Made by a program: the position numbers and the translations under genes. A DNA stretch of 64,000 nt, from the NCBI GenBank assembly GCA_963665115.1, contig OY762007.1, positions 5,536,001 through 5,600,000 of the forward strand, written 5' to 3'. Positions 3,561-41,831 of the stretch are shown here, one piece after another. The stretch's first letter is position 1. Each line of letters begins with the position of its first letter. This stretch comes from an uncultured Rivularia sp. GTDB taxonomy: Bacteria > Cyanobacteriota > Cyanobacteriia > Cyanobacteriales > Nostocaceae. The notes under the pieces are model-generated. The model did not search any database and had not been told where the DNA came from. It saw only the letters and a list, made by a program, of their open reading frames with translations.

Positions 3561-4952
3561 ATGTTTCAAGCTACTCGTCGCCGTCTTGCGATTTGGTATA
3601 CTGCTGTAACGGCTGTGTTATTGCTGCTGTTTGCTAGTGGAGTTTACTTGTATGTACGGAACACTTTGATTGAACGGATTGACGATACGTTAAATCATGT
3701 GGTGGAAGTTGTTGAGCGATCGCTAGTTATTGAAGGGGTTAACTCGAATAATGGTCTATTCAAACTTAATTTAGAAGCGAGTTTCCGTGATAATGCGGAT
3801 ACAACAGAAGATGACCGTATAGATTTGGAATGGTTTAGCCCTACTGGTAAGTTACTTTGGTCAACTTTATCTGAACCGTTAAATATTCCCATTTATTCTA
3901 ATCGTATGGGTGAAACTGTTCGGGTGATGAGAGGGGAAAATGTAGATGGGCTTTCTGAGCCGATGCTGTTGCGACAAGTTACTGAAAGAGTAGAAGCTGG
4001 ACGACAAGTTTTGGGATATCTGCGGGTAAGCCATCCTTGGTTTGAAGTGACAAAACCTAGCCGTCAATTAATTGTGGATTTGGGTTTGGGTATTGGCTTG
4101 ATGTTAGTTTCTGTGGCAACTAGCGGGTGGTTTCTTGCGGGATTAGCAATGCAACCTGTAAGAGAGTCTTATCAACGTCTCAAGCAGTTTACCGCAGATG
4201 CTTCTCACGAACTTAGAAGTCCGATCGCATTAATTCAAACTAACGTACAGGTTGCTTTGGATGAGTTGGAAGTAACGCAAACACAAGGGATTTATGTAGA
4301 GCATTATCAACAACAGTTAAAGTTAGTAGAACGATTAACTCAACGTCTTGGTAAGTTAGTCAATGATTTGCTGTTTCTAGCTCGTCAGGATAGCGGAATT
4401 ACCAGCTATGAGTTTTCTTCTTGCCCTATTGACGCTTTGCTAATGGAAGTAGTTGAAGAACAACAACTGCTTGCTGCTGAAAAAAAGATTGCTCTATGCT
4501 TACATTTAATTGATTCTCCAGAAACCGAAACTAATCCGGAATTGCTTGAAGATTGGTTTACCTTGATGGGTAATTGGGAGCAATTAGCACGTTTATTTAC
4601 TAATTTAATTAGCAATGCTTTACGCTACACCCAGGAAAACGGCAGAGTGGAAGTTGAATTGTCGCGTTTGGAAATTGTAAATCGCTCGGTACTGCAAGTG
4701 AAGGTTAAAGATAACGGTATTGGTATTCCATCTGAAGCTTTACCGCGTTTATTTGACCGTTTTTACCGAGTAGATCCAGCACGCAGCCATACATCGGGAA
4801 ATACTTTGACCAAAAATACTCACGGTTCGGGTTTGGGACTACCTATATCTAAGGCAATTCTGGAAAACCATCAAGGACAAGTGCAATTTGAAAGCGTTCT
4901 TGAAAAAGGTACAACAGTGACTGTCACTTTGCCAATTATTCCTGAGTATTAA
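3561..4952 (+). CDS. Membrane sensor histidine kinase (HisKA + HATPase_c), ManS/Hik27-like
   Basis: Two TM segments, H-box FTADASHELRSP, N-box NLISNALRY, DNGIGI, FDRFYR and GSGLGL. The likely start is MFQATRRR at 3561. Confidence 0.9.
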   Translation: MFQATRRRLAIWYTAVTAVLLLLFASGVYLYVRNTLIERIDDTLNHVVEVVERSLVIEGVNSNNGLFKLNLEASFRDNADTTEDDRIDLEWFSPTGKLLWSTLSEPLNIPIYSNRMGETVRVMRGENVDGLSEPMLLRQVTERVEAGRQVLGYLRVSHPWFEVTKPSRQLIVDLGLGIGLMLVSVATSGWFLAGLAMQPVRESYQRLKQFTADASHELRSPIALIQTNVQVALDELEVTQTQGIYVEHYQQQLKLVERLTQRLGKLVNDLLFLARQDSGITSYEFSSCPIDALLMEVVEEQQLLAAEKKIALCLHLIDSPETETNPELLEDWFTLMGNWEQLARLFTNLISNALRYTQENGRVEVELSRLEIVNRSVLQVKVKDNGIGIPSEALPRLFDRFYRVDPARSHTSGNTLTKNTHGSGLGLPISKAILENHQGQVQFESVLEKGTTVTVTLPIIPEY

Positions 4953-37789: not shown

Positions 37790-37940
37790 TTTCCCAATTA
37801 CCAATTCTCAATTACCAACTCTCAATTACCAATTACCAATTACCAATTACCAATTATCAATGCCCAATTATCAATGCCCAATTATCAATGCTCAATTCCC
37901 AATGCCCAATTATCAATGCCCAATTATCAATGCCCAATTT
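37790..37940. repeat. Mixed STRR heptamer array (AATTACC / CAATGCC / CAATTAT)
   Basis: Tandem heptamers directly after the stop codon of 37941..39113. Confidence 0.85.
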
Positions 37941-39113
37941 TTATTTCTTCCGCCTTCTTTTAATAACTTGCTCGCGTACTTGTTGATTTAATAAGTAACC
38001 AAAACCAGCTTTTTCTAAACGATGAACAAATTCATCATAATTATTTCCTAAAGCTTTCGCAGTCGCATCAATATTCCAATTATATTCGGCCAATTTACTA
38101 AGTAAGTAAACTCGCTTGGTTTGTGCGTTAGATAAACGGAAAGTTTTTAAATATTCTAATTCTCCATTCTCCCTAACAATCGCTTCTCCAATATGATTTT
38201 CTTCTTTAAGCTGTATATCGGTAATAAAACGCTGTAATCTAAATGGCCCGACATTGTAAACAATTTTAGATTGCAATTGACGATTTAGAATTCCTTCAGC
38301 CATGAAACCTTGAAAAGATGCCCAATCCGTTCGCATTTTTTCGATAGCTAATCTTAAATTTGCTAAATTATCAATCTCCGATTCATTTACTGATACATCC
38401 ATAGGAAAAGTTGTATCGTACAGCAAACCGTATTGATAAATTAATTCACCATAAAAATCTTCTAATAAACTCCTATGTAGCAAACGATAATCTTCTGGAG
38501 TGGGAACTACAAAAGCCGATGCTAAAGCTTCCGCGACAAAAATTAAAACTCCAACTTGTTTGGGATAAATTTCAAATACCCTTAAAGCATCTTCCAATCT
38601 AGCAATATAACGTCCTCCTACAGCAGTTTCGTAACGACAACCTAATCCATGTGAAAGAGCATACTTAGAATATTCGCTCCAAGCAATATCGGGGCCAGAA
38701 AAAAACATGGAAAGAAAACCTTCCATTGCCAAATGTAGCGGTAAGAATCTTAATTGATGATTTGACTCTCGTTTTCTCATACGATGCATTAAACGCACGC
38801 TAGCACAACCGGAATCAAGTCTTTTACCGTCAGATTTTGATTTCTGCATTTGTCCCCCGAAAGCAGCTAACGGGCTACCATCATCAGTCCAAGACATCAC
38901 TAACCCGTGGGGAACGTAGGAATAAGAATTAATATCTTTTTCTAAAGAAACAACAGTTAAATCTTCATCATAAGAACGTTTCATTAAACGTAAATCGCTG
39001 CGTACATTACGTCTGAGCAACGGCACAATTCGCACTGCACCGCGCACTTGAGAAGGAGCGATTTCTAATCCTTTTAAAGATATATCTGTTAGTAAATTCT
39101 TTTTTTGTGCCAC
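37941..39113 (-). CDS. ARPP-2-like domain protein with a C-terminal Fis-type helix-turn-helix
   Basis: The N-terminal LKGLEIAPSQVRGAVRIVPL...DLRL and YVPHGLV, LRFLPLHLAMEGFL recall ARPP-2 proteins (from memory, unverified). LAEYNWNIDATAKALG...HRLEKAG fits HTH_8. Confidence 0.6.
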   Translation of the reverse strand: MAQKKNLLTDISLKGLEIAPSQVRGAVRIVPLLRRNVRSDLRLMKRSYDEDLTVVSLEKDINSYSYVPHGLVMSWTDDGSPLAAFGGQMQKSKSDGKRLDSGCASVRLMHRMRKRESNHQLRFLPLHLAMEGFLSMFFSGPDIAWSEYSKYALSHGLGCRYETAVGGRYIARLEDALRVFEIYPKQVGVLIFVAEALASAFVVPTPEDYRLLHRSLLEDFYGELIYQYGLLYDTTFPMDVSVNESEIDNLANLRLAIEKMRTDWASFQGFMAEGILNRQLQSKIVYNVGPFRLQRFITDIQLKEENHIGEAIVRENGELEYLKTFRLSNAQTKRVYLLSKLAEYNWNIDATAKALGNNYDEFVHRLEKAGFGYLLNQQVREQVIKRRRKK

Positions 39114-39147
39114 TTTTAATCAATTATCAATGAACAATTATCAATTA

Positions 39148-39525
39148 TCAGTTGTTGTGGTTTATTCTTGTCTTTTTTAGAATTGAAAAAAGTAATCTTG
39201 CAATTTCGTCTGCATCTTTATAAATACTTTGAAAAGCTTTGTCAGTAATATAATCTGTATCTTTGAGAAGACAAAGCCAATACTTGGTTTCGAGACACTC
39301 TTTATACGCTATGGATAATTTAGCGGAAAAATCGGCTGTATAAATAGCTCCGTTTGCTTCTGAAACATTAGCTCCAATAGATGTTCCGCTCCTCATCAGT
39401 TGTTTTGATAAAATATATTCTTTCTTTTTTTCGGTGAGATATTTATAAGCATTAACGGTTCTAATAGCGAACTTATAAGACTTATCATAAAGAACATTAT
39501 TACTAAAATAATATTGCTGACTCAT
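39148..39525 (-). CDS. Four helix bundle protein (23S rRNA-IVP / Avd-like family)
   Basis: DKSYKFAIR, LSKQLMRSGTSIGANVSEA and FSAKLSIAYKECLETKYWL. Confidence 0.9.
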   Translation of the reverse strand: MSQQYYFSNNVLYDKSYKFAIRTVNAYKYLTEKKKEYILSKQLMRSGTSIGANVSEANGAIYTADFSAKLSIAYKECLETKYWLCLLKDTDYITDKAFQSIYKDADEIARLLFSILKKTRINHNN

Positions 39526-39640: not shown

Positions 39641-41092
39641 TTAACTACTTCTTGATAATTGATAATTGTTAATTGATAATTGATAACTGACTCTATTTGA
39701 TAAATATTCTTCCAACTCCGATAAAGAAGCAGAGCCATTTGCAAACTGAGCAAAACCCAACATTGTTGGTAAATCTTCAGCATCTCGCAATCCGACGGTG
39801 GGAATGTCGGGACATAATGAGCGCACGGAAAAGTCGTCGGAGTTGAAAACTGGATTGCAGTGAACTATTGAGGTACGGTTATTTATATCTAAACGCTTCC
39901 TAAAAATGCTTAATACCTGCGCTGCTCCGCAAGGTGGGTCATTTTCGCAACCATCGGATACAATCACTACTAAGTCTGCGCCCCATTCTAATGCATCTAA
40001 TAAAGGTGTTGCTAAGTCGGATTGTCCGCGAGGACTTACTTGCAATGGATCTGCTGGAGGTAGCGTCCAAAAATCTTGATATTCTTTAGCTGCGGTTTTT
40101 AACAAATAGTGAGTAGCTAAAGCGACACCCAATGGACGACGGCGCTTTTCGGAAGAACCATAACTGGAGTAGCTGCAATCTAAAACTGCTGCGACTCGCT
40201 GTAATTTCATTGGTGCTTTTCTCAATATTTTTTGAGCAGATTTTTCTAGAGCTTGATTGAGAATATCCCGTTTTTGTTTTCGAGTGTTCGCGGGTAAGGA
40301 AAGTATATATAGTGCTAATTTAGTTAAAGGTAGTCGAGCTAAATCTAAATCAATGTTGATTTTGGCGCTACAAGCCGCATTTTGAAACCGTAATTTTTCG
40401 TTCAAAGTCATCCTTTCTTGGATGCGGGTTAAGAAAACTTCGCGTTTAATTTTATGCTTTGCTGCTAAACCTTCAGCAACGGTAAATGGCAATTGATATA
40501 CAGCTTCAGCGCTAAAATGAGCTTGACGAAAGTTTTCAAATAATTCTGTTTGATATGCTTTTTGTTTCCAGTTCCGAAACAGAAAATTACTTAATTCTCC
40601 TTGAAGTTTCAAGTGTGCGTGAGTAACTATTGCCCGTACTTTAGAACGATATTTCACCGCATCAAAATCAATATTGCGGCGATAATTCAGATAATCGCGG
40701 GCGATCGCCCGACTGCGACGGTTGTTGATTTTTCGTTGTCTCAACTGCTGCAATACTCCCCAAGCCCGCTGGGTTGGTAGTTGTTGCAATGCCGAAGCAA
40801 TCAACGCGCCTTCTTCTTGCCGATGTTGTGCAGATGTATTTTTTCCCGTAGCCAATAAGTTTAAAATTATCTGTACTTGATTAAAATGATTAATTCCTGC
40901 TGCCAAAGTCCGAGCATAGAGCAAGCGGTAATTACCTAAAATATATTCATGCAGAAAATTAATTGAAACCTTCTGTCCGTAAGCATCATCATAAAATTCC
41001 CTCTGCCCCGTACAGGACAAACAAGCATTAATAAACATAACCAAATCTTCCCGCGCAACAACTTCGGCACGGTTATTTAACGCAGTATTCAT
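39641..41092 (-). CDS. Ro60/TROVE-like helical domain plus vWA (MIDAS) protein
   Basis: Basic helical N-terminal region of about 295 aa. The C-terminal VAAVLDCSYS (DxSxS), RGQSDLATPL and VVIVSDGCEN parallel Ro60 DVSASM / GGTDCSLPM / IVFTDNET. Confidence 0.65.
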   Translation of the reverse strand: MNTALNNRAEVVAREDLVMFINACLSCTGQREFYDDAYGQKVSINFLHEYILGNYRLLYARTLAAGINHFNQVQIILNLLATGKNTSAQHRQEEGALIASALQQLPTQRAWGVLQQLRQRKINNRRSRAIARDYLNYRRNIDFDAVKYRSKVRAIVTHAHLKLQGELSNFLFRNWKQKAYQTELFENFRQAHFSAEAVYQLPFTVAEGLAAKHKIKREVFLTRIQERMTLNEKLRFQNAACSAKINIDLDLARLPLTKLALYILSLPANTRKQKRDILNQALEKSAQKILRKAPMKLQRVAAVLDCSYSSYGSSEKRRRPLGVALATHYLLKTAAKEYQDFWTLPPADPLQVSPRGQSDLATPLLDALEWGADLVVIVSDGCENDPPCGAAQVLSIFRKRLDINNRTSIVHCNPVFNSDDFSVRSLCPDIPTVGLRDAEDLPTMLGFAQFANGSASLSELEEYLSNRVSYQLSINNYQLSRSS

Positions 41093-41093
41093 A

Positions 41094-41292
41094 GGGAGTA
41101 GAAAGTAGGGAGTTAGGAGTAGGGAGTTAGGAGTTGGGAGTAGTGAGTAGAAAGTAGTGAGTTGGGAGTAGTGAGTTAGGAGTTGGGAGTAATAAGTAGT
41201 GAGTTAGGAGTAGGGAGTTAGGAGTAGGGAGTAATAAGTAGGGAGTAGAAAGTAGGGAGTTAGGAGTAGGGAGTAGAAAGTAGTGAGTAGAA
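41094..41292. repeat. Degenerate STRR array (GGGAGTA / GGAGTTA / GTGAGTA)
   Basis: About 200 bp of tandem heptamers between the candidate RNA and the vWA gene start. Confidence 0.85.
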
Positions 41293-41330: not shown

Positions 41331-41420
41331 GATGCTGTTCGGGGAAAGGCGGCACGACTGGCTATGACCATTTGTAAGTGGGATTCGGAAGTCGCACCAT
41401 AGTCCCCCCGCGAACAGCAA
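41331..41420 (-). ncRNA. Candidate structured ncRNA, Y-RNA/YrlA-like or a cis-leader of the Ro60-like operon
   Basis: GC-rich island. On the minus strand UGCUGUUCG-C-GGGGGG pairs with UUUCCC-CGAACAGCA (bulged C). The inner stem is GGUGCGACU/AGUCGUGCC, and the loop holds the T-loop-like UUCCGAAUCCC. Confidence 0.6.
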
Positions 41421-41468
41421 GACTGATAATAATTTGTAATTATTTGTAATGATTAATTATTAAGTTTA

Positions 41469-41831
41469 TTAAGCGTGGCAGAATTCACAATTAAACAGTT
41501 TCTGCAATAAATATTCAGTATATTCCTCAAGCTCAGTTACGAATACACCCGTTTCGCTTTCCGCTTCTGATGTTACCCAAATACCTTTTAAAACAACTTC
41601 AACCGACTCGGCATCACAACGGCAGAACTCTACTATATTTTCGCTGTTGATTTTATTTAGTTCACTAATGAAAAACGATGCTGGTACTAAAATAGAGGCC
41701 GTACTAGATTCAATATTAATACTGACAGTACTCCGTATACTTATAAGTACTCTGGTATTTATCCAGTCTTCTAAGGATTGTTTTAAGCAATCTAAGCTTA
41801 TCTTATCGTCGGTATAAGTAAGTTTTAACAT
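41469..41831 (-). CDS. Alr0857 family protein
   Basis: MLKLTYT...LEDWI..RV, ESSTASILVP and VEVVLKGIW...GVFVT. Confidence 0.75.
   Translation of the reverse strand: MLKLTYTDDKISLDCLKQSLEDWINTRVLISIRSTVSINIESSTASILVPASFFISELNKINSENIVEFCRCDAESVEVVLKGIWVTSEAESETGVFVTELEEYTEYLLQKLFNCEFCHA

Follow-up and report, generated by a model that had tools for sequence, protein, structure and literature searches.

The question raised by this locus is what kind of element lies upstream of a gene for a vWA protein in the stretch of Rivularia DNA analysed here, whose full 64,000 nucleotides are referred to as the window. A reading made from the letters alone had pointed to an unannotated structured RNA on the minus strand, either a new Y-like RNA or a cis-regulatory leader. 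The RNA is real, conserved, structured and small, and it is absent from the RNA family catalogue; its coordinates and those of the neighbouring features are collected in Table 1.

Table 1. Features at the RNA locus, in window coordinates
Feature	Position	Strand	Remarks
alr0857-family gene	41469..41831	-	upstream neighbour, Nostocales only
Possible -10 hexamer	41426..41431	-	precedes the stem by 7 nt; weak in this AT-rich DNA, enriched by position across the family
Structured RNA, uncatalogued family	41333..41419	-	about 87 nt; ends taken from the closing stem
P1a, 5' arm	41411..41419	-	pairs with 41333-41341; variable sequence, strong covariation, invariant G-C pair at the end
GGGACU core, nearly invariant (P1b and internal loop), with the G run and the bulged pyrimidine at 41410	41401..41410	-	from column counts; candidate Ro-binding site
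P2, 5' arm	41390..41398	-	pairs with 41351-41359
Unpaired UCCGAA	41384..41389	-	from column counts; resembles the CGAA Ro-contact motif described in PMC4201824 and PMC12135203
P3, apical hairpin (CCA/UGG)	41368..41381	-	3 bp and 8-nt loop here; usually 4 bp and a 7-nt anticodon-type loop in relatives
7-base tandem repeat array	41092..41292		separates the RNA from the start codon of the Ro-like gene; a local array with no relation to the RNA
Divergent Ro60/Rsr-fold protein, 483 aa	39641..41092	-	predicted fold: helical ring and vWA domain with MIDAS
Four-helix-bundle gene	39148..39525	-	local passenger, inserted between the Ro-like and ARPP-2 genes
ARPP-2 protein (PF22549) with C-terminal Fis/NtrC-like HTH	37941..39113	-	predicted partner of the Ro-like protein

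Fold and conserved core of the RNA

On the minus strand the element folds into a long hairpin (-36.3 kcal/mol, z -3.47; none of 200 shuffles equalled it), the fold of the plus strand being weaker (z -1.96). Both of the 9-bp stems proposed by the sequence-only reading, an outer and an inner one, are present as P1a and P2, and the claimed GC-rich island is also there, with 56% GC over the model match and a contrast that blurs in 200-base windows. The possibility of a dispersed repeat, which would have spoken against that reading, was excluded by the presence of just one copy in the 8.7-Mb host genome. No Rfam row reached gathering anywhere in the window, the element itself giving only sub-threshold chance rows, and ARAGORN found no tRNA or tmRNA. 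A 97-aa open reading frame across the element extends into the array of 7-base tandem repeats. The nearest relatives belong to Rivularia/Calothrix. Short tandem repeats are also found at 37793-37939, 39119-39150 and 39652-39690, one of these arrays overlapping the C-terminus of the Ro-like gene.

Covariation was analysed on 147 RNA copies, which were reduced to 103 at 93% identity and, after removal of a copy with eight G, to 102 sequences aligned from sequence alone. RNAalifold returned 21 pairs, 19 of them with compensatory changes. Over a 26-pair structure 90.6% of the cells are paired, as against 76.3% in shuffles, none of 500 of which scored as high, and 36-47% in slid controls; changes on both sides were seen in 21 of the 26 pairs, and parsimony counted about 98 compensatory events compared to about 6 in slid controls. 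All four helices show compensatory changes. In a home-made, R-scape-like, tree-aware test seven pairs passed, five in P1 and two in the apical hairpin, and no significant pair fell outside the structure among the 102 sequences. P1a, with 95.7% of its cells paired and both-side changes in seven of eight pairs, holds five passing pairs; P2 is paired in 88.6% of cells and shows about 23 compensatory events on the tree, with no pair passing the strict test. The paired columns of the 102 homologs hold 280 G-U cells as opposed to 48 A-C cells, which fixes the RNA strand and bears out the minus-strand assignment that had been made from the G-U wobbles of the window copy.

Between the two stems the sequence-only reading had placed a single bulged C and a GGGGGG/UUUCCC helix, each of which stands in part. 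The unpaired C is found at 41410, a position at which 69 of the 102 sequences have C, 32 have U and one has A. The G run is present in the window copy but is private to it, since 136 of the 147 copies have three G and longer runs occur only in the window (six) and in one close relative (eight); what the family conserves is a GGGA/UCCC helix, after which comes an unpaired, near-invariant CU. The run of six G at 41404-41409, compared with three in relatives, could stem from slippage in this lineage or from a homopolymer assembly error. Column counts outline an invariant face made of G-(C/U bulge)-GGRAC-U, of U-U/A-CCG after P2 and of the CCC strand. Within it CCG is invariant (102/102), CCGAA occurs in 70 and UCCGA in 72 sequences, and the motif lies further inside the molecule than the terminal-stem bulge. 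Judged by eye, UUCCG might instead pair with the 5' core, an alternative that was dropped because the compensatory changes favour P1b.

The apical part of the earlier model did not survive comparison with the homologs. The flanks of the proposed tRNA T-loop-like motif, which would have to form a T-stem, are paired in 8.5% of cells, and UUCRA is found in two of 102 sequences; all three pairs of the proposed GGU-CAUA-GCC hairpin are kept in 21 of 102, the apical hairpin that covaries being P3. The loop of this hairpin measures 7 nt in 64 of the 102 sequences, and these 64 have C in 55 and U in 61 cases, three variable bases of which the middle one is biased to U (51/64), a purine in 56 and A or C in 63. 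A loop of the form Y-U-N-N-N-R-(A/C) occurs in 54 of 102 RNA copies, versus 45 of 56 anticodon loops of host tRNAs and 3.5-4.6% of background hairpins, in a comparison for which the pattern (Y32-U33-N-N-N-R37-A/C38) was defined after seeing the data and in which the RNA family represents one origin. With respect to a tRNA anticodon arm the stem is usually 4 bp and not 5, the loop of the window copy has 8 nt and there is no fixed anticodon. The tRNA-like part of the molecule, if any, would be a tip resembling an anticodon loop.

Distribution of the RNA and the proteins encoded downstream

The epidemiology of the RNA was addressed through 140 loci that carry the Ro-like gene, 36 of them drawn from genome contigs, 24 from a phylum-wide search and 80 from metagenomes, with some genomes counted twice. 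A full-length RNA lies upstream on the same strand in 133 of them, detected by profile or pattern in 130 (three of these by eye) and by the covariance model in three. The other seven loci comprise two with a partial RNA at a contig end and five without RNA, which have at most 386 upstream bases. The conservation and covariation upstream of homologs that the earlier reading had asked about were both found, and the GC content of the loci spans 22% to 74%. A covariance-model search of 157 of 400 genomes (all 24 that bear the gene and 133 of the 376 that do not) recovered the RNA in 24/24 genomes with the gene, adjacent to it in 23 and on a separate small contig in one, and in 0/133 genomes without it; it is the negatives that carry the weight here, because the training set included many of the positives or sequences near them, and filtering was strict. 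Named carriers of the Ro-like family belong to the Nostocales (Anabaena/Trichormus) and the Myxococcota (Myxococcus), together with a Planctomycetota MAG, and metagenome loci that bear the RNA match myxobacterial proteins at 79-90% identity. Thirteen loci carry two or three RNA copies, and two subtypes are maintained side by side across genomes. Such a tandem pair, of a CCGAA and a CCGUU type, is kept across Nostocales genomes (loci L040, L041, L043, L045, L083, L087-L089 and L163).

Weaker resemblances extend to viruses. The 14 best weak matches (best E 1.6e-4) come from 11 viral loci and one plasmid locus; all of them precede distant viral Ro-like genes on the sense strand, tRNA genes often surround them, and the GGGACU core is also retained in distant viral modules. 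In viral contigs L065, L067, L069 and L071-L075 the Ro-like genes are preceded by one or more weak look-alikes of the core, lying amid tRNA genes, and L065 has an ARPP-2-like gene downstream as well. The RNA model gave no match upstream of an Alkaliphilus plasmid homolog, nor around the ordinary Rsr gene and a second Ro-like/ARPP-1 pair of the host genome.

The downstream vWA protein is predicted to adopt the full-length ring fold of Ro60/Rsr. Its sequence matches nothing in Pfam (TROVE included), NCBIfam or the PDB, in contrast to the ordinary Rsr encoded elsewhere in the host genome, which does match TROVE. The AlphaFold2 model (pLDDT 81.5, pTM 0.80) was compared by Foldseek, where the matches listed at E<0.001 are all Ro60, Rsr or phage TROVE proteins of 11-15% identity, and by VIA-align, whose top three are a phage Ro60 (Z 15.9), Xenopus Ro60 (Z 15.4) and Deinococcus Rsr (Z 12.6), over about 405 residues at an rmsd of about 5 A. 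Sequence searches against the PDB were empty, and the Ro-like identity came to light through fold search only. ESM Atlas groups the protein with clusters automatically named TROVE in Cyanobacteriota and Actinomycetota, and UniRef already calls some homologs "TROVE domain-containing". Among 52 distant members, whose quick tree is poorly resolved, the MIDAS residues D305, S309 and D380 are present in 52/52 and S307 in 51/52, K147-Y148 is invariant, H160 is kept in 50, and an NNRRxR patch with H158/H160 is almost invariant. When the alignment is chained via the ordinary Rsr of the host, H160 falls on H187 and K147-Y148 on K170-Y171 of Xenopus Ro60, through a weak profile alignment (probability 0.9%, E 0.065); H187 is a Y RNA contact according to PMC4030889.

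ARPP-2 follows the Ro-like gene in 82 of 92 loci checked, and none of the other neighbours recurs among 126 flanking ORFs of the GC-rich loci, RtcB, PNPase or a nuclease included. The RNA, the Ro-like protein and ARPP-2 are a self-contained module, for which PADLOC returned no match. In the ARPP-2 model (pLDDT 83) the body has no clear fold match and the HTH alone scores, its C-terminal tail giving a weak but low-rmsd match to Fis/NtrC HTH domains (Z 5.0, 1.1-1.9 A, about 45 residues); the protein also matches ARPP-1 weakly. ARPP-2 is predicted to dock on the vWA domain of the Ro-like protein, its helix 240-264 lying on residues 357-401 with a complex score of 0.66 compared to 0.00 for the best of three controls, a mark that 116 of 157 solved pairs and 2 of 215 mismatched ones attained in a calibration that is only rough for the alignments used here. 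The contacts agree in at least 75%, and the partner pLDDT is 72-73.

Relation to known Y RNAs

The Y-like class proposed by the sequence-only reading is well supported, because the predicted structure of the vWA protein matches Ro60/Rsr and because the RNA and the gene co-occur strictly. With the Y RNAs of Ro60/Rsr as described in PMC4201824 and PMC4030889 (vertebrate Y RNA, Yrn1/Yrn2 of D. radiodurans and the hairpin-type YrlB) the RNA shares a length of about 80-130 nt, a long stem pairing the two ends, interrupted by a bulged pyrimidine and leading to a large internal loop, and an adjoining Ro60-fold gene on the same strand (by predicted fold in our case), often with more than one copy. It differs from them in the flanks of the bulge, which are not those of the GGUCCGA-like 5' strand of Y RNA, and in having no Rfam match. 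GNCGAA, the defined bacterial Ro-binding motif, occurs in 0/102 sequences, the CGAA of this family lying in the middle of the molecule and away from the 5' end. The protein differs as well: it is only 11-15% identical to solved Ro60s, it escapes Pfam, and its fixed third partner is ARPP-2 where the known systems have rtcB.

A resemblance to YrlA (RF02553; PMC4201824; bioRxiv 10.1101/312249) is confined to the Y-type stem and a possible tRNA-like part. As these sources describe it, YrlA mimics the D/T elbow, lacks an anticodon loop and carries GNCGAAN0-1G near its 5' end, a motif found in none of the 102 copies; our RNA lacks both the D and the T arm and shows at most an anticodon-type loop. 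The analogy to YrlA by way of a T-loop is not supported, there being no T-stem, no D arm and no YrlA match. In the Rfam comparison that had been proposed as a check no YrlA row appeared at the RNA up to E 10 at three loci, while the region before the ordinary Rsr of the host, serving as an internal control, gave a separate weak YrlA match of 23.7 bits, below gathering. This match (L168:3757-3884) lies immediately before the ordinary Rsr and shows clear motifs of both the T and the D arm; at about 3890-3960 of the same locus, the mis-extended start of the ORF covers another T-arm-like stretch. The RNA likely works like a Y RNA without being YrlA, and is a candidate for membership of the Y RNAs in the broad sense.

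The best structural match of the Ro-like protein is the Ro60 of Thermus phage phiLo (Z 15.9; PMC12135203), whose upstream RNAs Yrl1/Yrl2 are described as having a stem-bulge-stem form, the large bulge containing CGAA; the likeness to our RNA is one of description. The two proteins are 11-12% identical, and the module reported here differs in being chromosomal in several bacterial phyla and in including ARPP-2. The third gene falls in the ARPP-2 family (PF22549), related to the ARPP proteins of PMC9503650, which links ARPP genes to ARG, HIRAN, WYL and deacetylase genes and whose main text does not contain the terms "TROVE", "Y RNA" or "ncRNA". Term searches of two supplements, PMC8421152 and PMC4734099, gave no matches. 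The full-text literature yielded no account of the RNA or of the trio, motif-discovery and preprint supplements lying outside the scope of the search; Burroughs and Aravind 2016 may mention the protein family. Surveys of Y RNAs began from TROVE-annotated proteins (PMC4201824) and would therefore have skipped a Ro60 branch missed by Pfam together with its RNA.

Transcription and the weighing of possible roles

Transcription was examined by mapping raw RNA-seq reads from two studies on the two-copy relative L163. The reads have a single orientation, which is the sense strand in usual stranded libraries, and run from the upstream gene through RNA copy 1 at a depth of about 165-250 in three runs of one study and about 20-26 in one run of the other; depth then drops more than tenfold, to 3-15, just past copy 1, with repeat-derived reads confounding positions 1162-1208. 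Copy 1 is thus covered as the 3' part of the transcript of the upstream gene, and coverage of copy 2 is low. Because small RNAs are lost from ordinary mRNA libraries, the L163 reads show transcription only: the transcript sought by the earlier reading is seen as sense reads, but in these mRNA-type libraries there is no pile of starts at the RNA 5' end that would mark a discrete species. No full promoter was found ahead of the RNA in the window, the -10-like hexamer listed in Table 1 being enriched just before the stem in the family (21 of 37 GC-rich loci versus 1-4 in control windows). A U-rich tail is absent in 90 of the 102 sequences and seen in 12. PMC4201824 describes Y RNAs of mycobacteria and Deinococcus that likewise arise by cleavage of precursors upstream of rsr.

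Our preferred reading is that the RNA is probably the Y-type partner of the divergent Ro60-like protein, in a particle with ARPP-2. The RNA would head a module whose other two parts are the protein of predicted Ro60 ring fold and ARPP-2, would be transcribed together with the operon or from its own promoter at the 5' end, and would then persist as a stable unit, through release or protection. Bound by the ring at its invariant face (the bulged pyrimidine, the GGGAC internal loop and UCCGA), it would leave the apical loop exposed. The main rival, which may coexist with a Y-type partner, is a cis-regulatory leader whose structure stays in the mRNA and is bound by the Ro-like protein or by ARPP-2 for feedback on the operon through attenuation, processing or translation. 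The constant position of the RNA upstream and on the same strand as the Ro-like gene, the enriched hexamer just before the stem, the start codon that often lies within about 30 nt of the stem and the fall in depth past copy 1 in L163 are all what such a leader would predict. We nonetheless consider it unlikely, as no alternative fold or expression platform covaries, the RNA-to-start-codon distance ranges from about 70 to 1324 nt and at times takes in another gene, tandem subtypes and copies in viral tRNA arrays occur, and the 5' and 3' ends are paired as in stable RNAs.

A tether of the RYPER type, in which a Y-like RNA links a Ro paralog to PNPase or another exonuclease for the decay of structured RNA, with ARPP-2 as a co-regulator and the loop as a protein handle only, is improbable. 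It would fit the known role of Yrn1, YrlA and phage Yrl1/2 (PMC4201824, PMC12135203), and an effector could bind in the large internal loop; against this, the effector end is minimal, consisting of one 4-bp hairpin, and ARPP-2, tightly linked as it is, is predicted to dock directly on the ring. An element acting at the level of DNA, such as an operator for the ARPP-2 HTH, or a terminator-like repeat has hardly any probability left. The Fis-like HTH of ARPP-2 and the drop in read depth after the element would agree with it, but the excess of G-U over A-C cells and the long-range covariation point to a single-stranded RNA, and most copies are without a U tract.

If the RNA is the Y-type partner that we favour, the module offers a new Ro60 effector, ARPP-2 on the vWA face as predicted, and a new RNA design; as the family is found in Anabaena/Trichormus and Myxococcus, a role of bacterial Ro60-Y RNA particles beyond PNPase tethering becomes directly testable. 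The most speculative proposal, which we put forward tentatively, is that the apical loop mimics a tRNA anticodon loop and acts as a decoy or sensor for tRNA-attacking enzymes, signalling, when translation is under stress, to ARPP-2 and its DNA-binding tail. More doubtful is its extension to a hidden second branch of Ro60 and Y RNA in cyanobacteria, myxobacteria and others, in which a minimal Y RNA would present a bare anticodon loop, serving as a tripwire, on a Ro ring joined by the DNA-binding ARPP-2. Were the tripwire to exist, attack on tRNA would lead to a transcriptional or enzymatic response, through a ribonucleoprotein damage sensor free of RtcR.

In PMC10272220 alr0857 is placed in the TrcR regulon of translation stress together with rtcB, and its supplement gives, in the absence of TrcR, increases of 3.7-fold for alr2130, 2.1-fold for alr2131 and 1.7-fold (not significant) for alr2132, genes of 369, 1461 and 1179 nt, the last tagged as DNA-binding. 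From gene order and length we infer that alr2130-alr2132 correspond to this module, alr2131 having 486 aa as family member P0046 does. A direct TrcR site before the upstream gene was not supported, because one of 38 loci has a site within one mismatch and the window holds two exact sites where 1.7 are expected.

The host genome also encodes a second Pfam-silent Ro-like/vWA protein (465 aa) with ARPP-1 (L167:275-8922; G000:C1:4070000-4079000, minus strand), in an operon-like run with an HNH protein, an alr0857-like protein, an L7/L12 paralog, a protein listed as unknown, an EF-Ts paralog, an OB-fold RNA ligase and an AAA ATPase. This operon looks like a translation-repair locus, and the RNA ligase and the EF-Ts and L7/L12 paralogs beside the second Ro-like/ARPP-1 pair make the wider family point to RNA repair.
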